From an uncultured Rhizobium sp. (lineage in GTDB: Bacteria; Pseudomonadota; Alphaproteobacteria; Rickettsiales; UBA1997): 64,000 bases of DNA. The first letter of the stretch is position 1, and the number at the start of each line of letters is the position of its first letter. The position numbers and the translations under genes were made by a program. The stretch covers positions 73,003 to 137,002 of the forward strand of contig CAYUSO010000001.1 in NCBI GenBank assembly GCA_964447395.1. Reading direction: 5' to 3'. Of the stretch, positions 18,322 through 49,202 are shown one piece after another. The notes under the pieces are model-generated. The model was given only the letters and a program-made list of their open reading frames with translations. It searched no databases and was not told the origin of the DNA.

Positions 18322-19544
18322 AGCTGCCTTTCTGGCCAAATCCCTCGAATTATAACGACATCGAACTCGGACTTTCTCGCGTTTATCAGCTGCTCGAAAG
18401 ATTGGAAAATCCACATCTCAAACTTCCGCCAACAATTCACATCGCAGGCACGAATGGTAAGGGTTCGACGCTGGCTTTTTTGCGCGCGATTTTTGCTGAA
18501 TCTGGTTTAAAAATTCACACTTACACTTCGCCACATTTAGTAAATTTTAATGAAAGAATCGCGCTCGCCGGCGAAGAAATTTCTGACGATTTTTTGAATG
18601 AAATTTTACGCGAATGCAAAGAGGCGGCCGAAAAATCTCCGCCAATTCCTGTCACTTTTTTTGAAGGAGTGACAGTGGCGGCGTTCCTTGCCTTTAGCCG
18701 CGTCAAAGCCGATTTGCTTTTACTCGAAACCGGCCTTGGCGGCAGATTGGATGCGACGAATATTTTGCCGAAAGTTTTATGTTCAGTGATCACTCCGATT
18801 GATTTCGATCACGAAGAATTTTTGGGAAATAGGCTGGAAAAAATCGCTTTCGAAAAAGCTGGAATCATCAAAAAAAATTGTCCGGTGGTGATTGGAAAAC
18901 AGAAAGAAGAAGTGCTGCGAGTTCTTGAAAATCAAGCCTCTATCCTGAATTGTAAAATAATTTACGACTTACGACTTACGACTTACGACTTACGACTAAC
19001 TGGAAACTACCAACAAGAAAACGCAGCACTTGCGGTTGCGGTTGCGAAGGCGCAGAAAAAATTTTCGGTAAGCGAGGAGCAGATAAAATCCGGATTAAAG
19101 AAGGCATTTTGGCCGGCACGTTTGCAGAAAATTTTATCGGGAAAATTTTTTGAGAATCTGCCAGAAAACTGCGAACTCTATCTCGATGGCAGTCATAATT
19201 TACAAGGTGCAGAAACGGTTTTAGAATTTCTAAAAACACAGAAAAATAAAAAAATAATCCTGATTTTTTCCATGCTGAAAGACAAAAATTGTCAGGATTT
19301 TTTGCAGAAAATTAGCGGAGAAATCGACGAATTAATCGCAATAAGAATTCCTGATGAATCAAGATCGCGTGAAGCGGATGAGATAAAAAAAATCGCTGAA
19401 AATCTCGGTATTAAATCACAAAACGCAAAAAATTTTGATGATGCTTTCGAAAAAATAAAAACCGACGAGAAGGCTCTGATTATGGTTTGCGGATCACTTT
19501 ATTTGGCAGGAAAATTTCTGGAAGAGAATCGCAACAAAAGGTAG
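18318..19544 (+). CDS. folC: bifunctional folylpolyglutamate synthase / dihydrofolate synthase
   Basis: 408 aa with HIAGTNGKGST, TSPHLV and ETGLGGRLDATN. It contains the in-frame TTACGAC heptamer tract. Confidence 0.9.
   Translation: MKLPFWPNPSNYNDIELGLSRVYQLLERLENPHLKLPPTIHIAGTNGKGSTLAFLRAIFAESGLKIHTYTSPHLVNFNERIALAGEEISDDFLNEILRECKEAAEKSPPIPVTFFEGVTVAAFLAFSRVKADLLLLETGLGGRLDATNILPKVLCSVITPIDFDHEEFLGNRLEKIAFEKAGIIKKNCPVVIGKQKEEVLRVLENQASILNCKIIYDLRLTTYDLRLTGNYQQENAALAVAVAKAQKKFSVSEEQIKSGLKKAFWPARLQKILSGKFFENLPENCELYLDGSHNLQGAETVLEFLKTQKNKKIILIFSMLKDKNCQDFLQKISGEIDELIAIRIPDESRSREADEIKKIAENLGIKSQNAKNFDDAFEKIKTDEKALIMVCGSLYLAGKFLEENRNKR
18962..18996 (+). repeat. (TTACGAC)x5 heptamer microsatellite, in frame inside folC
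   Basis: Five perfect tandem heptamers encoding [13 protein letters not shown]. Confidence 0.95.
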
Positions 19545-20604: not shown

Positions 20605-20760
20605 TTTTTTAACGCCGAGATTCGCGCCTAGGCGCTCATGCTCATTTAGGCTAAAAACAGACGTTTGGTCTGTTTTTTTAACGCCGAGATTCGCGCCTAG
20701 GCGCTCATGCTCATTTAGGCTAAAAACAGACGTTTGGTCTGTTTTTTTAACGCCTAAATT
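20605..20760. repeat. 69-bp tandem repeat (2 full copies + partial) between nuoB and nuoC
   Basis: AACGCCGAGATTCGCGCCTAGGCGCTCATGCTCATTTAGGCTAAAAACAGACGTTTGGTCTGTTTTTTT starts at 20611 and 20680, and a partial third copy at 20749 overlaps the nuoB stop. Each unit has two hairpins (GCGCCTAGGCGC and ACAGAC-N5-GTCTGT). Confidence 0.95.
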
Positions 20761-21265: not shown

Positions 21266-21267
21266 GA

Positions 21268-21362
21268 AAAAATTAAGAATTAAGAATTTAAAATTGAGAA
21301 TTGAGAATTTGAAATTTGCCACAAACCAACAGGTCAGAATTCTCAATTCTTAATTCTAAATT
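21268..21362. repeat. REP-C palindromic element (AAGAATTAAGAATT family)
   Basis: TTAAGAATTAAGAATTT..TTGAGAATTGAGAATTT ... AGAATTCTCAATTCTTAATTCT, lying between nuoA and nuoB. Confidence 0.8.
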
Positions 21363-27268: not shown

Positions 27269-27377
27269 GACAGATCCCGAAACGAGTTCGGGATGACAAT
27301 TTGAGAGTTTGAGATGGCAATTTATTAAGGAAAATCTCACCAAGATTGTCATCCCGAACTCGTTTCGGGATCTGTCT
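27268..27377. repeat. REP-B palindromic element (GTCATCCCGAACTCGTTTCGGGATC family)
   Basis: Perfect 33-bp inverted arms (27268-27300 and 27345-27377). Each arm contains its own hairpin, ATCCCGAA-N5-TTCGGGAT. The element starts within the formyltransferase stop codon. Confidence 0.95.
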
Positions 27378-31876: not shown

Positions 31877-31977
31877 AACGCGTCCCGAACTTGTTTTTGA
31901 TGTTTTCGTCATCCCGAACTCGTTTCGGGATCTATCTAGAATTTTAACAAGATCCTGAACCAAACTCAGGATGACAA
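31877..31977. repeat. REP-B palindromic element (degenerate, composite)
   Basis: GTCCCGAACTTGTTT, GTCATCCCGAACTCGTTTCGGGATCT and the variant GATCCTGAACCAAACTCAGGATGAC lie between atpF and pheT. Confidence 0.85.
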
Positions 31978-31987
31978 ATGCAGCTTC

Positions 31988-34378
31988 ATGAAATTCACCC
32001 TCTCCTCACTCAAAGAGCATCTCGAAACTTCTGCATCACTCGAGGAGATTTGCGCGAAACTCACCAGCATTGGTTTGGAAGTTGAATCACTTGATGATAA
32101 AGCAAAAATTCTCGCCCCATTTTCCGTCGCAAAAATCATCGAAGCCAAACCGCATGAAAATTCTACCAAACTAAAAATCTGCACAGTTGAAGTTCCAAAT
32201 TCACCAACGCCGCTGCAAATTATTTGCGGCGCGAGCAATGCCAGAAGCGGCTTGAAAGTGGCTTACGCACCAATCGGCTCAACAATTCCTGCCAATGGAA
32301 TGGTGATAAAAAAAGCCAAAATCGCCGGAGTTGAAAGCAATGGCATGTTGTGTTCGGCGCGCGAACTCGGCATTGGAAATGAAGATGCTGGAATCATCGA
32401 AATCGCAGAAAAATGGCCAGTCGGCACCAAAATCACCGAAGTTTTTTCGCTCAGCGATGCAGTAATTGAAATCAACGTCACACCAAATCGCGGCGATTGT
32501 TTGGGAGTTTACGGAATTGCGCGCGACCTTGCAGCATCTGGCATTGGCGAATTGAAAAAATTGCAAATCAAAAAAATTCCAGCGCAATTTTCTTTTTCAA
32601 TTGAAGTAAAAAATGAAGCGCCAGAAATCTGCCCTTACGCCGCTTTCCGCTATTTAAAAAATGTTAAAAATTGTGAATCGCCAAAATGGCTGAAAGAGAA
32701 ATTGCAAGCTGTTGGAATCAATTCAATTTCTGCAATTGTTGATGTGACGAATTACGTCATGCATGTTTTGAATCGTCCGATGCATGCTTACGACGCCAAT
32801 AAAATCAAATCTCCGCTGCAAATTCGCTTTGCAAAAAAAGATGAAAAATTCACTTCGCTAAAAAACGAAGAATTTATTTTGGATGAAAAAATTTTAGTAA
32901 TTTCAGATTCAGAAAAAAGCCTTGGAATTGCTGGCGTTATTGGCTCGGCAAATTCTTCCTGCGATTTGGAATCAACAGAAATTTTACTCGAAGCCGCATT
33001 TTTTAAACCATCATCAGTCGCATATTCTGGTCGCCAATTAAACATTTTATCCGATGCCAGACACCGCTTCGAACGCGGCGTTGACGAGTCTAGTTGCGAA
33101 CAAGGAATTGATTTGGCAACGCAATTAATTCTCGAAATTTGTGGCGGCGAAGTAAGCGAAATAAAATTCGTCGGACAAAAATCAGCACCGAAAAAAATCA
33201 CCTTCGATAGTTCAAAAATTAAAAAACTAACTGGTGTTGAAGTCGCGGAGGAGAAGGTTTGGGAGATTTTGTCGAGTTTAGGGTTTAAAGTCGTAAGTCG
33301 TAAGTCGTTAGTCGTAAGTGAGGTTGATATCCCATCGCATCGCCACGATATTTTTGCTTCGGAAGATTTGGTCGAAGAAGTAATCCGCATTTTTGGCTAT
33401 GATAAAATCCCTTCACAGCCACTTACGACTTACGACTCACAACTTACGACTAACATCAGCAACCACCTAACCGATTGCCGCTCCCACCTCGCCTCTCTTG
33501 GCCTTACCGAAATAATTTCTTGGTCATTTGTTGATTCAAAGCTTGTCGAAATTTTTGGCGAAAAAAATGAAAAATTAATTTTGGCTAATCCGATTTCTTC
33601 GGAAATGGATCACATGCGCCCTACTCTGGCAATTGGTTTGATCGAATCTTACAAAAAAAATTCGCTGCGAAATTTTTCTAATCTTTCACTTTTTGAAATT
33701 GGAAATGTTTTTGTGGAAGACGCGCAGAAGCTAATGATTTCAGGCCTTCGCGCCGGAAAAAATAAAGAGCAAAATCACTATCATGATGAAAGAGATTTTG
33801 ATGTTTTTGATGTGAAAAAAGATTTTTTTGAAGTGGTAGAAAATTTTGGCTTACGCTTTGAAAGCTTGCAACTCAACACTTCAGACGCGCCAAAATATTA
33901 CCACCCTCACCGCTCTTGCTCTCTAAAATTAGGAAAAAATTTGGTTGGATTTTTTGGCGAAATTCATCCGGCGATTACAAAAAAATTTGATTTAAAAACT
34001 CGCATAAATCTTTTTGAAATTTTTGTCGACTCTCTTCCAAACTCACAAAAATCAAGCTCGCGCAAGGCTTTTGCCAAAGCTTTTGTGATTAATGATTTAC
34101 CAATTGTCGAACGCGATTTTGCATTTTTAGCTGACAAAAATTTAGCCGTTAGCGACTTAATAAAAACCGTCACAAATGCTGAAAAAAATCTCATCAAAGA
34201 AGTAAATATTTTCGATATTTTTAGCGGAAAAAATATCGCCGAAGACAAAAAATCCGTAGCTCTGCGCGTAAAAATTCAGCCTCAAGAAAAAACCCTCACC
34301 TCCGAAGAAATCGATGCAATAAGCAAAAAAATTGTTGATGCTACGCAAACAGCTCACAACGTGACTCTACGCGATTAA
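31988..34378 (+). CDS. pheT: phenylalanine-tRNA ligase beta subunit
   Basis: 796 aa with a tRNA-binding N-terminal domain, TPNRGDC, HRHDIFASEDLVEEVIRIFGYDKIP and a C-terminal FDX-ACB-like domain. It carries two heptamer tracts. Confidence 0.95.
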   Translation: MKFTLSSLKEHLETSASLEEICAKLTSIGLEVESLDDKAKILAPFSVAKIIEAKPHENSTKLKICTVEVPNSPTPLQIICGASNARSGLKVAYAPIGSTIPANGMVIKKAKIAGVESNGMLCSARELGIGNEDAGIIEIAEKWPVGTKITEVFSLSDAVIEINVTPNRGDCLGVYGIARDLAASGIGELKKLQIKKIPAQFSFSIEVKNEAPEICPYAAFRYLKNVKNCESPKWLKEKLQAVGINSISAIVDVTNYVMHVLNRPMHAYDANKIKSPLQIRFAKKDEKFTSLKNEEFILDEKILVISDSEKSLGIAGVIGSANSSCDLESTEILLEAAFFKPSSVAYSGRQLNILSDARHRFERGVDESSCEQGIDLATQLILEICGGEVSEIKFVGQKSAPKKITFDSSKIKKLTGVEVAEEKVWEILSSLGFKVVSRKSLVVSEVDIPSHRHDIFASEDLVEEVIRIFGYDKIPSQPLTTYDSQLTTNISNHLTDCRSHLASLGLTEIISWSFVDSKLVEIFGEKNEKLILANPISSEMDHMRPTLAIGLIESYKKNSLRNFSNLSLFEIGNVFVEDAQKLMISGLRAGKNKEQNHYHDERDFDVFDVKKDFFEVVENFGLRFESLQLNTSDAPKYYHPHRSCSLKLGKNLVGFFGEIHPAITKKFDLKTRINLFEIFVDSLPNSQKSSSRKAFAKAFVINDLPIVERDFAFLADKNLAVSDLIKTVTNAEKNLIKEVNIFDIFSGKNIAEDKKSVALRVKIQPQEKTLTSEEIDAISKKIVDATQTAHNVTLRD
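33290..33317 (-). repeat. (GTCGTAA)x4 = reverse-orientation heptamer tract, in frame inside pheT
   Basis: GTCGTAA GTCGTAA GTCGTTA GTCGTAA encodes VVSRKSLVVS. The third unit carries the A-to-T change at 33309 that turns an in-frame TAA into TTA. Confidence 0.95.
33424..33451 (+). repeat. (TTACGAC)x4 heptamer tract, in frame inside pheT
   Basis: TTACGAC TTACGAC TCACAAC TTACGAC encodes LTTYDSQLTT. It forms an inverted pair with 33290-33317, 106 nt away. Confidence 0.95.
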
Positions 34379-46797: not shown

Positions 46798-47136
46798 TTA
46801 TTTTTCCTGTTTTGCTGGACGCGGATCGAAGAATTTTTCGAATTTATTTTTCATACCATCAAAATCTTTCGCGTCAGTTGGATGATCTTTTTTCTTGGTA
46901 ATCACCGGCCATTTTTTGGAATATTCGCGATTAATTTCGACCCATTTTGTTAAATCTGGCGATTCTGGCGAGATGGCTTCAGCTGGGCATTCAGGCACGC
47001 AAACTCCGCAATCGATGCAAGCATCAGGATCAATTACGAGCATATTTTCTCCTTCGTAAAAGCAATCAACTGGGCAGACGGAAACGCAATCGGTATATTT
47101 GCATTTCACGCAATTATCGGTGACGACATAGGTCAT
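46798..47136 (-). CDS. fdxA: 7Fe ferredoxin (3Fe-4S + 4Fe-4S)
   Basis: 112 aa with [29 protein letters not shown] and [12 protein letters not shown]. Confidence 0.9.
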
Positions 47137-47140
47137 AAAA

Positions 47141-47845
47141 TTAGGAATTACGAATTAAGAATTTTTTTTGATTAATCGCGGTTTTTACGCGCAACAAAGA
47201 AAGAAAAACAAAATAAGAAAAATAAACGCCAAACATCAAGAGCAGAGGTTTGAGCATTGAGGCGTGGATGGCCATGCCGCCTGAGCGCATGATGCTTGCT
47301 GGTTGATGAAGCGAGTTCCAATATTCCACTGAAAACTTAATGATCGGCACATTGATGAAGCCAACGATTGCAATGATTGCAGCGATTTTTTCTCCCTTCG
47401 TTTTATCGTCAAAAGCATCGAGCAAAATCATGTAGCCAAGATAGAGAAAAAACAAAATTAAAACCGAAGTTAAGCGTGCATCAAAAACCCACCAACTGCC
47501 CCAGATTGGCTTGCCCCAAAGGCTGCCGGTGATGAGAGTGATGAGCGTGAAAGTTGCGCCGATGATGGCGATTGATTTTGAAATGAGATAAAAAAATGGA
47601 TTTTTCCAGATGAAGCCTGAGATGTTAAAAATCGCCATCAGCGTATAAATCAGCAAAGCCATCCAAGCTGCCGGAACGTGAATATACATGATTCTAACCG
47701 CATTGCCTTGCTGATAATCGAGCGGCGAATTTATGATGGCGGGAATTGCCAAAACCAAAAATCCCAAAAAACATCCGAAAGAAAATGGCGCAAAAAAACG
47801 AAAATTTTTTTCGAAATTTTTGAAGAGGAAAAGTTTTTGAAACAT
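47141..47845 (-). CDS. ccmC: heme exporter protein C (cytochrome c maturation)
   Basis: 234 aa, polytopic. The WWD motif region is [21 protein letters not shown]. Confidence 0.9.
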
Positions 47846-47846
47846 T

Positions 47847-49100
47847 TTAAATCTTGCCCTGAATGTAGTGAATTAGCAGCTCCTGCTTCACTTTTTGTTC
47901 TTTGGAATTGTCAAAATCTTTCACCGAAACTTCGCCGTTTTTCATTTCATCTTCGCCGATAATTACGACAAAACGCGAGTTGTTTTGCGAAGCGCGTTTC
48001 ATTTGTTTTTTGAAATTTCCATCGAAAGTAAAATCAACCGCCAAGCCAGCATTGCGAAGCTTTTGTACTATTTCAAAAGCGTAGGTTTTTTCATTTTCCG
48101 AAATGTAATTCACTGAAATTGGACGCGCTTTTGGCAGATCAAATTTTGTAAGTATCATCAAGCGTTCAACGCCAGCAGCAAAGCCAATTGCTGGAACTTT
48201 TTTGCCACTCATTTTTTCGACGAGATTGTCGTAGCGACCTCCCGCCAAAACCGTGTTTTGCGCACCTTCGTGACTCATCACAAATTCAAAAACTGTTGAG
48301 GTGTAATAATCTAAACCACGCACCAAGCGTTGATTGACGCGGTTCTTCACGCCAAATTTTGCCAATAAATTCAAGATTGAATCAAAACGATTTTTCGCTT
48401 CCGCAGAAAAAAACTTAGAAATTTCTGGCGCGTCATTCAAAAGCTCAATGTCTTGCAACTCTTTAGAATCAAGGATTCGCAGCGGATTTTTTTCCAAACG
48501 AATTTGCGAATCGCGCGACAAATCATTTTTAAATTTTGCGAAATATTCGCTCAAAGCCACTTCATAATTTTTTTTCGTTTCGGCGCAGCCGAGAGAATTT
48601 ATTTCCAAAGTGGTTTGATCTAAAACTCCTAAATCCTTGAGAATAGCGGCTGCAAGCAATATCGCTTCAACATCACAAAATAAATTTTCTTCACCAAAAA
48701 TTTCAAAATTAATTTGATGGAACTGGCGCTGACGGCCTTTTTGCGGACGATCATAACGAAAAATCGGACCAGCAGAGAAAAATTTCCGCGGCAAAATTTG
48801 CTGCAATTCGCCATTTGAAATCAAGGCACGAACAATTCCCGCTGTAAATTCTGGACGCAGCGTAATGAAATTTTCTGAGCGATCCTGAAATTTATAAACT
48901 TCTTTCGCGACAATGTCTGAAGCCTCGCCGAGATTGCGCTCAAACACTTCGCTAAATTCAAAAATCGGCGTTTGCAATTCTTCAAAACCAAAATTTTTGC
49001 TACGATTTTTTGCCGAAGAAAGGATGTGATTAAAAATTTCGATCTCTTCGCCAAATAGGTCTTTTGTGCCTCGAACGGGCTGAAGCTTATGATCCGACAT
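47847..49100 (-). CDS. hisS: histidine-tRNA ligase
   Basis: 417 aa with VRGTKD, RYDRPQKGRQRQFHQ and GGRYDNL. Confidence 0.95.
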   Translation of the reverse strand: MSDHKLQPVRGTKDLFGEEIEIFNHILSSAKNRSKNFGFEELQTPIFEFSEVFERNLGEASDIVAKEVYKFQDRSENFITLRPEFTAGIVRALISNGELQQILPRKFFSAGPIFRYDRPQKGRQRQFHQINFEIFGEENLFCDVEAILLAAAILKDLGVLDQTTLEINSLGCAETKKNYEVALSEYFAKFKNDLSRDSQIRLEKNPLRILDSKELQDIELLNDAPEISKFFSAEAKNRFDSILNLLAKFGVKNRVNQRLVRGLDYYTSTVFEFVMSHEGAQNTVLAGGRYDNLVEKMSGKKVPAIGFAAGVERLMILTKFDLPKARPISVNYISENEKTYAFEIVQKLRNAGLAVDFTFDGNFKKQMKRASQNNSRFVVIIGEDEMKNGEVSVKDFDNSKEQKVKQELLIHYIQGKI

Positions 49101-49103
49101 GAA

Positions 49104-49195
49104 AAAATTAAGAATTTAGAATTAAGAATTGTAAGTTAAAACCTGTCTAAGAAACCGCGCCAAATCACTCTAAATTCACAATTCTTAATTCCAAT
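49104..49195. repeat. REP-C palindromic element
   Basis: A perfect 14-bp stem, GAATTAAGAATTGT (49119-49132) with ACAATTCTTAATTC (49178-49191), plus additional AAGAATT units. It fills the divergent hisS/lepA intergenic region. Confidence 0.85.
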
Positions 49196-49202
49196 TTCCT
49201 AA

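Follow-up and report, generated by a model that had tools for sequence, protein, structure and literature searches.

Tandem TTACGAC heptamer arrays in frame within the folC, pheT and queC genes of an uncultured alphaproteobacterium

How does a tandem repeat whose unit of 7 nt is not a multiple of three come to encode internal segments of conserved enzymes, and what becomes of those segments at the same sites in related genomes? The question is raised by a 64-kb stretch of DNA from an uncultured bacterium placed in the Rickettsiales (GTDB lineage; contig CAYUSO010000001.1 of assembly GCA_964447395.1, positions 73,003 to 137,002; the whole stretch is hereafter the window), in which folC and queC each carry one in-frame array of the heptamer TTACGAC and pheT carries two. 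Cyanobacteria have been known since 1990 to contain families of tandem heptamers. In giant sulfur bacteria such families have been known since 2015 (PMC4679880), and for the known families neither the origin, nor the 7-nt period, nor the spread of one unit over many loci is understood. We consider it probable, with some reserve, that the tracts described here are a lineage-specific heptamer family resembling the short tandemly repeated repetitive (STRR) sequences of cyanobacteria, shaped by slippage and homogenisation, by some exchange between arrays and by a filter of selection.

Arrays of TTACGAC in the linkers of FolC, PheT and QueC

The first-pass annotation of the window, made from the sequence alone, had described four in-frame TTACGAC arrays, and all four are present at essentially the positions that it gave and with the encoded peptides that it gave (Table 1), the one correction being that the forward pheT tract lies at 33423-33450, one base off the 33424-33451 originally reported. 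Tandem Repeats Finder (TRF) returned a period of 7 at all four tracts, the copy number being 4.4-5.1 and the matches 83-100%. No array in the window runs longer without interruption than that of folC, with five perfect units over 35 nt; a single-unit slip in this five-unit array (18962-18996) would frameshift folC. The third unit is imperfect in the queC array and in both pheT arrays, and the tracts of queC and pheT site 2 have 33 nt in common with one mismatch, and an identical T to C substitution in their third units. With four arrays within 64 kb, one unit is dispersed over several loci. A two-unit TTACGAC probe with up to one mismatch gave 11 matches in the window against 0.01 expected from shuffles, and lone TTACGAC heptamers stand at background (8 on both strands, against about 7.8 expected), so that the arrays alone are anomalous and single heptamers are not.

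An origin by chance, or as an artefact of assembly, has next to no probability in view of this excess over shuffles, the intact open reading frames (ORFs), the confident structure models and the orthologous arrays found in several relatives. An independent assembly (L123), with a QueC 96% identical to that of the window, contains the same queC tract, TCACGAC unit included, and the tracts are therefore not assembly artefacts; no copy-number variation was seen in this comparable pair. A database FolC (P0121) is 100% identical to the FolC of the window.

The tracts are predicted to be translated as loop or coil segments of the conserved enzymes, at positions that are variable and poorly ordered. 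In the AlphaFold2 model of FolC, which has a mean predicted local distance difference test score (pLDDT) of 92.3, residues 216-228 form a coil with pLDDT 81-86 that is bounded by a strand at 214-215 and a helix at 231-245. In the QueC model, which is otherwise good, residues 84-91 are the only internal segment with pLDDT below 50, and the tract as a whole aligns to a gap-rich loop of 3bl5 and 2pg3, in agreement with the earlier placing of the queC tract in a variable loop. Site 1 of PheT stands directly before the conserved PSHRHD motif, and the 105 nt that separate the two pheT arrays are conserved PheT coding sequence. These two arrays pair in silico into a stem of about 30 bp (33275-33465; -59.8 kcal/mol, z = -6.0); a conserved stem in the pheT mRNA was considered and rejected, the pairing being strong in the window and absent in the relatives L120 and L124. 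All three host genes had been described as essential, which is established for pheT and, in E. coli, for folC, but does not apply to queC, since queuosine synthesis is dispensable. The array-encoded peptides themselves are probably without function and serve as tolerated linkers.

The same tracts had been described as insertions, which is not what the linker lengths indicate for pheT and folC. Against E. coli PheT (3pco), the window protein is 2 aa longer at site 1 and 1 aa shorter at site 2, and E. coli PheT has ordinary residues at the positions that are repeat-coded in the window. The FolC linker, counted from a conserved I to a conserved G, has 15 aa in the window, L189, L190 and L120, and in L189, where there is no array, it reads IISYKKFLPKKTSLL; peptide alignment gives 14-16 aa across the subclade with or without an array, and in more remote FolCs the linker position holds a hairpin segment of about 35 aa. 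PheT site 2 is equally long in L121 (no array) and L127 (array), and a further PheT site near residue 204 is 11 aa long with an array in L127 and without one in the window. The 777-aa forms of PheT were considered as carriers of empty sites and rejected, as L125 and L127 have proteins of 777 aa and yet TTACCAC arrays at site 2. Among the window host genes a net gain is confined to QueC (the net change in FolC is 0 aa): its VPK-to-IP segment has 12 aa against the usual 7-8 in close relatives, a gain of about 4-5 aa. The in-gene arrays mostly take the place of existing variable linker residues and leave the linker length unchanged.

The relative L124 differs in this from most of the coding arrays: a lineage-specific CACGAAG array of 4.9 units at its PheT residue 72 (10214-10247), HEARSTKHEARTT, adds 11 aa in comparison with the window and is a true insertion. 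The L124 locus is the same as L150, the two being 100% identical across 22.4 kb, though they come from two metagenome records.

The content of stop codons differs between units and between orientations. In tandem, TTACGAC is stop-free when read forward and presents a TAA every 21 nt when read in reverse, and AATTAAG, the unit of a second and related heptamer family that stands directly upstream of start codons in the window, contains stops whichever way it is read. The reverse pheT array is open only because its third unit, GTCGTTA, turns TAA into TTA. It had been proposed that a TTACGAC tract can land in any frame without truncating its host, and this holds for the forward orientation but fails for the reverse one; nor is the property special, seeing that 69% of all heptamers contain no stop when one orientation is considered. 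The absence of multi-unit TTACGAC copies outside genes, noted earlier, was reproduced by a motif search of the whole window. No coding bias can be read from it: at least 90% of the window is coding, and the finding of 4 of 4 arrays in genes is for that reason not significant (p = 0.67); an intergenic TTACGAC hairpin, moreover, is present in L120. A coding bias was therefore rejected. We infer instead that the stop content of the units explains their distribution, with TTACGAC in ORFs and AATTAAG beside start codons.

Table 1. Host genes, heptamer arrays of the window and arrays at corresponding sites in relatives (window positions count from the first letter of the 64-kb stretch)
Locus	Feature	Position	Strand	Description
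Window	folC	18318-19544	+	408 aa; FolC against PDB 1o5z, E = 2.7e-62; hosts one array
Window	pheT	31988-34378	+	796 aa; matches 3pco; hosts two opposite arrays 105 nt apart
Window	queC	60532-61248	+	238 aa from MKKAIV (mechanical ORF starts at 60484); matches 3bl5 and 2pg3
Window	folC array	units 18962-18996, periodic stretch 18960-19000	+	(TTACGAC)5 exact, then partial unit TAAC (motif search, TRF); peptide = FolC 215-228 (translation of 18960-19000)
Window	pheT site 1	units 33290-33317, stretch 33288-33319	- (array reversed relative to gene)	GTCGTAA GTCGTAA GTCGTTA GTCGTAA on the + strand; peptide VVSRKSLVVS = PheT 435-444 (translation)
Window	pheT site 2	units 33423-33450, stretch 33421-33454	+	AC TTACGAC TTACGAC TCACAAC TTACGAC TAAC; peptide LTTYDSQLTT = PheT 479-488, linker directly after the conserved FGYDKIP motif
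Window	queC array	units 60779-60806, stretch 60777-60809	+	AC TTACGAC TTACGAC TCACGAC TTACGAC TAA; peptide = QueC 83-92 (translation)
Window	nuoA-nuoB spacer hairpin, AATTAAG family	21266-21362	-	about 7 AATTAAG/AATTGAG units (21271-21316), loop, about 3.5 inverted AATTCTT units (21338-21362); fold z = -4.1
Window	divergent-spacer hairpin, AATTAAG family	49104-49200	-	AATTAAG/AATTCTT inverted arrays; junction CTTAATTTTTTC-ATG to gene 47847-49100 (-)
Window	AATTAAG-family array	47137-47166	-	AATTAGG AATTACG AATTAAG; 2 nt upstream of the ATG of ORF 46798-47136
L120	PheT site 2			TTACGAC
L120	PheT site 1			decayed array of identical length
L120	FolC			CTATCGC, register and length as the TTACGAC array of the window
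L190	FolC			decayed TTACCAC array
L124	PheT residue 72 and site 1			CACGAAG
L124	PheT site 2			CTACCCG
L127	two tracts	4212 and 6177		perfect tracts of about 30 nt, TTACCAC, 4.3 units
L127	PheT site 2	6976		TTACCAC, 4.7 units, partly decayed
L127	4 nt before pheT ATG			(CAGTGCC)3...(CTGAGCA)4 hairpin

Turnover of units at orthologous sites

The window was compared with 65 pheT-centred metagenome loci and with several loci obtained by exact-protein look-up. A period-7 score with a maximum of 21 and a null 99th percentile of 13 was applied to the PheT sites, and sites 1 and 2 score 15-21 in the window, L120, L124/L150, L125 and L127 and 14 or less in the remaining relatives. The high-scoring genomes are the closest relatives, with 73-78% PheT identity, and because period-7 arrays are confined to them the PheT arrays are derived and lineage-specific. 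Most relatives have non-periodic sequence at the array sites, the in-gene arrays being derived states.

In the close relatives the orthologous sites switch unit while keeping register and length, and several loci within one genome share a unit, as is illustrated by L120, L190, L124 and L127 in Table 1. Further units at the FolC site were deduced from peptides, namely TGTCGAC (CRLSTVDCRLS), TGCTGCC (CCLLPVACCLP), TTACCAC (HLPLTTYHLPL) and AATTACG/AATTAGG (GNYELGIGNYEL). The QueC site is variable in relatives, and in-frame hairpins occur there in P0291 and P0328; for one of the two the DNA (L122) consists of about five GTCGTAA-like units, the sequence ATCA and about four TTACGAC-like units, with a right junction (TTACGACTAAAATC) identical to that of queC in the window. 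A weak proto-periodicity is found at PheT site 2 in relatives that have no array, for example TTACCACTTGCCAC in L146, and the array at this site may for that reason have grown in place.

The FolC of L120 (1215-2540, 441 aa) has its array and, in addition, about 33 aa, …HSSSLTHQRRGSHKIGLQNSRDPRPFRPRMTR…, for which the window FolC has no counterpart; other relatives carry different extra FolC segments elsewhere, such as …HPHEGGDPVLLQDLPDPRLRGDD… in P0144. These extra segments may be further repeat elements translated in frame.

How might such a pattern arise? Arrays of 4-5 units occupy weakly constrained DNA, either spacers before start codons or variable surface linkers, and in the process that we infer they would arise and turn over there by replication slippage, with homogenisation of the 7-nt period within each array. 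Exchange or copying among the arrays of a genome, for instance by ectopic gene conversion over tracts of about 30 nt, would then account for the unit that the loci of a genome have in common. Inside genes, purifying selection would retain only stop-free arrays with a length divisible by three and close to that of the ancestral loop, and such a filter would leave the stop-free TTACGAC in ORFs and AATTAAG beside start codons and would favour the change of TAA to TTA in the reverse pheT array.

Several points weigh against this account. Neither the period of 7 nor the sharing of a unit between loci has a demonstrated mechanism, and a length of 28-35 nt is about the least on which RecA-mediated conversion can act. 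Single slips of 7 nt would frameshift essential genes, so that turnover within genes could proceed only in steps of three units, through compensated events or under the cover of polyploidy, none of which was observed; many heptamer-rich lineages are thought to be polyploid, although the masking of otherwise lethal slips in this way is speculative. The T to C variant shared by queC and pheT site 2 is one coincidence only, to be expected by chance with a probability of roughly 1%. The FolC arrays of the window and L120 differ at 4 of 7 unit positions while agreeing in register and length, which is not easily obtained by conversion from other loci. Finally, the evidence base consists of 64 kb of the source genome together with stretches of about 20 kb from few relatives.

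The agreement in register and length leads to another and very improbable explanation, in which a process encoded by the genome, templated or specified by an enzyme, would rewrite weakly constrained DNA in place into a genome-specific heptamer and keep its length. This would explain perfect arrays in otherwise diverged genes, and it is consistent with a unit that is common to the loci of one genome and differs at orthologous loci in the same register, with equal-length replacement at four sites and with the dominance of period 7 in unrelated phyla among the matches listed (see below). However, no candidate gene or template was found, units coexist within a genome (TTACGAC and AATTAAG in the window, TTACGAC and CTATCGC in L120), and selection on loop length can account for constant length, the FolC linkers of the subclade having their 14-16 aa whether or not they hold an array.

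Slippage, exchange and a selective filter thus remain the account that we prefer, and the lineage offers a clean comparative system in which to examine it, with FolC, PheT, QueC and one operon spacer holding no arrays, decayed arrays or perfect arrays of differing unit in genomes only 20-25% diverged in protein sequence. Because the same aligned sites vary, a tree could give the dates of gain, turnover and exchange, and models of slippage, conversion and transposition could be judged by them. Essential enzymes evidently tolerate linkers written by repetition of a unit not divisible by three, and this tolerance bears on mutational load and on the evolution of protein loops.

Heptamer arrays outside genes and in other phyla

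The AATTAAG family is represented in the window by three arrays, with the variants AATTGAG, AATTACG and AATTAGG, and all of them lie 2-6 nt upstream of a minus-strand ATG. They are never gene-internal in the window, the most being an overlap of the 47137-47166 array with the last codons of ORF 47141-47845. The nuoA-nuoB hairpin ends in CTTAATTTTTTC-ATG on the gene strand, at a nuoB-like start codon. The variant AATTACG, which occurs at 47137-47166, is one nt from ACTTACG, a rotation of TTACGAC, and the orthologous nuoA-nuoB spacer of L120 holds a (GTCGTAA)4-loop-(TTACGAC)4 hairpin.

An exact scan for (TTACGAC)3 with one genome per species found at least 119 loci. Among the matches listed, to which the figures of this paragraph refer, the hosts are Cyanobacteria (Chroococcidiopsis), Chloroflexia, many Bacteroidota, Gammaproteobacteria, Planctomycetota and others. 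In 836 kb of the loci from other phyla that carry (TTACGAC)3, perfect arrays number 234 for period 7, 21 for period 4, 2 for period 6 and 16 for period 8, and 106 of the 234 period-7 arrays are not the seed, there being 63 other unit classes in addition to the seeded one. The TTACGAC arrays of other phyla are mostly outside genes and range from 3 to 26 units: 28 of 123 end, in the sense orientation and mostly 3-15 nt away, just ahead of the ATG of a long ORF, about 9 of the 123 lie within long open frames, and 17 have an inverted partner within 150 nt. TTACGAC is one of many units in heptamer-rich genomes and is not specially widespread. A scan of proteins for 7-aa periodicity was too insensitive for arrays of 4-5 units, and a pattern T-N-N-N-R-A-C common to TTACGAC, the STRR units and TAACTGA, the heptamer of giant sulfur bacteria, is not claimed, as the analysis by rotation to the best match is biased to the reference.

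In viral contigs, (TTACGAC)3 was found in 5, and two composition-matched scrambles in 5 and 3, so that spread of TTACGAC by phages was rejected, the repeat being no commoner there than scrambles. By comparison, (TAACTGA)3 was observed in 107 viral contigs (loci L204-L283) and is about 20-35 times commoner in them than (TTACGAC)3; phages may carry or spread the TAACTGA family, for which no transmission route is known.

The position of arrays before start codons suggests the possibility that the repeats are selected as cis-acting signals, the in-gene copies included, and act as multivalent protein-binding sites, in RNA or DNA, or as structured mRNA, with the long-range stem of 30 bp in the pheT mRNA as a possible route for in-gene copies. 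In the window, L120 and L127 the leader arrays stop 2-12 nt short of a start codon, the same placement recurs in the other phyla among the matches listed, and the fold z-scores of pheT and the nuoA-nuoB spacer are -6.0 and -4.1. A like placement is known for TAACTGA and for the heptamer repeats of Nostoc, which lie near start codons or promoters and whose deletion changed reporter expression (bioRxiv 10.1101/2022.06.06.494920). We nevertheless regard this as quite unlikely to be the general explanation, since the sequence of the unit changes from one orthologous site to another, which means that no fixed protein-binding motif is kept, the pheT pairing is absent from L120 and L124, the coding arrays lie exactly where the protein tolerates any sequence, and no binding protein is known.

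The hairpins suggest a further possibility, namely a small mobile palindromic element composed of inverted heptamer arrays on either side of a short loop and able to insert at permissive sites, protein loops among them, comparable to the Rickettsia palindromic elements (RPE), repetitive extragenic palindromes (REP) or miniature inverted-repeat transposable elements (MITE), of which single arrays would be hairpin remnants. The in-frame QueC hairpin of L122, which has the same right junction as the window array, would fit such an element, as would the TTACGAC hairpin in the L120 spacer, the inverted and pairing arrays of pheT, the 17 of 123 arrays with an inverted partner among the matches listed in other phyla, and the identical tracts of about 30 nt at separate loci of one genome; a true palindromic element is also present in the PheT and QueC loops of relatives (peptides HPELVSGS and KQILNQVQDDGV). 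Yet the single arrays are not self-complementary, and hairpin versions were found only in relatives. The arrays lack constant termini and a non-periodic core, target-site duplications are likewise missing (the junctions of the four window arrays show no duplicated flank), and among the matches listed in other phyla the length varies from 3 to 26 units. Most coding arrays bring no net change in length, so that the sites do not divide into filled and empty ones; orthologous arrays with the same register and length and another unit indicate turnover in place; the 105 nt between the pheT arrays are conserved PheT coding sequence; and no transposase gene was identified in the window, whose ORFs were not scanned systematically against Pfam. 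On balance a mobile element seems unlikely, and turnover by slippage with some exchange remains preferred.

The window also contains repeats of other kinds. A palindromic element, ATCCCGAACTCGTTTCGGGAT, has three exact copies in spacers (27274-27294, 27351-27371 and 31911-31931), one of them just upstream of pheT, and a copy in L147 at about 843 was listed with them; in relatives an element similar to it lies in frame in the PheT loops, with the peptide HPELVSGS at site 1 and KQILNQVQDDGV at site 2. The spacer after a nuoC-like gene contains a perfect 69-nt tandem duplication (20605-20754, 2.2 copies, 100% identical), each copy of which has a palindrome, GCGCCTAGGCGC, and a terminator-like stem, AAAAACAGACGTTTGGTCTGTTTTTTT. 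An Rfam scan of the window gave tRNA as the sole match. Three very large ORFs, 51230-60187 (-) of 2985 aa, 34394-38125 (+) of 1243 aa and 13585-17196 (+) of 1203 aa, are of low complexity, rich in Ala, Glu and Lys, and contain internal tandem repeats of 18-66 nt (e.g. 52440-52629), and ankyrin-repeat proteins are encoded at the loci of the relatives L120 and L121; both features fit a host-associated lifestyle.

Comparison with known repeat systems

Literature searches returned no account of TTACGAC arrays, or of heptamer arrays in Rickettsiales-like bacteria, and the closest comparators are repeats of other sequence or other hosts. The tracts resemble contingency loci in being coding tandem repeats with a unit that is not a multiple of three, but contingency loci belong to surface or restriction-modification genes, and the arrays described here form internal linkers of housekeeping enzymes. 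For the long simple sequence repeats (SSRs; units of 5-11 nt) studied by Mrazek and co-workers, heptamers are the most abundant class in most genomes, and slippage was proposed, with about 7 nt as a polymerase-related length, at least as that work is summarised in a later paper (PMC4679880). The dominance of period 7 in all the data sets examined here agrees with the long SSR class, whereas a 7-nt unit inside essential genes departs from the expectation that coding units are multiples of three.

The RPE are elements of about 150 bp, in families with a conserved encoded peptide, that lie in frame in metabolic genes (PMC10969869). Like them, the TTACGAC arrays are repeat DNA tolerated in frame in unrelated metabolic genes of an alphaproteobacterium at surface-compatible positions, and in relatives a true palindromic element occupies those very loops of PheT and QueC. 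Unlike the RPE, which are MITE-like and add residues, the tracts are 28-41 nt long and purely periodic, have no conserved core and mostly bring no net gain.

The STRR units of heterocystous cyanobacteria, such as CCCCAGT, TTGGTCA and CAACAGT, are nearer in form, these heptamers having reportedly been described by Mazel et al. in 1990. To our knowledge, the in-frame replacement of linkers in housekeeping enzymes is not part of the STRR description. In the strict sense the present arrays fall outside STRR, with TTACGAC as the unit and homologues that are labelled Rickettsiales, Alphaproteobacteria or Pelagibacterales metagenome-assembled genomes. They are similar to STRR and to the Nostoc repeats in being tandem heptamers with several families per genome. 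The placement near start codons or promoters and the hairpins of inverted arrays in operon spacers are seen in the AATTAAG arrays of the window, in the TTACGAC hairpin of L120 and, among the matches listed, in TTACGAC arrays of other phyla; the four TTACGAC arrays of the window lie in genes, a count that is not significant. In Nostoc, the examples include (TTTTGAA)3-4 and an eightfold GAC(C/T)AAT that overlaps the recO start codon (bioRxiv 10.1101/2022.06.06.494920).

The most informative comparator is the TAACTGA repeat of marine Beggiatoaceae, which is also found in Cyanobacteria and some Bacteroidetes and forms arrays of 2-6 units, mostly within a few nt of start codons (MacGregor 2015, PMC4679880). 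One of its orientations has stops in all frames, and the other is in frame in 11 ORFs, where it encodes a cyclic heptapeptide; no transmission mechanism is evident, and 'a range of repeating heptamers' was noted in Microcystis (PMC4679880). In-frame heptamer arrays in ORFs had thus already been described, and the view that those of the window act by a mechanism unlike anything known is not supported. The two families agree in their 7-nt unit, in occupying many loci of a genome, in the placement at start codons (of AATTAAG in the window and of TTACGAC in other phyla) and in the freedom from stops of the copies within ORFs, which for TTACGAC are forward, or reverse with the TAA removed. They differ in unit sequence and in the alphaproteobacterial host, and TRF found no TAACTGA array in the window, where the units are TTACGAC and AATTAAG. 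The TAACTGA copies in ORFs are mostly at protein termini, unlike the TTACGAC arrays of the window, which replace internal linkers of conserved enzymes, and the turnover of units at orthologous sites that is seen here was not described for TAACTGA. We therefore read the arrays as members of the same general class as the cyanobacterial STRR and the Beggiatoaceae TAACTGA repeats, and what is novel in them is the unit, the host lineage, the in-frame replacement of internal enzyme linkers and the turnover of units at orthologous sites.

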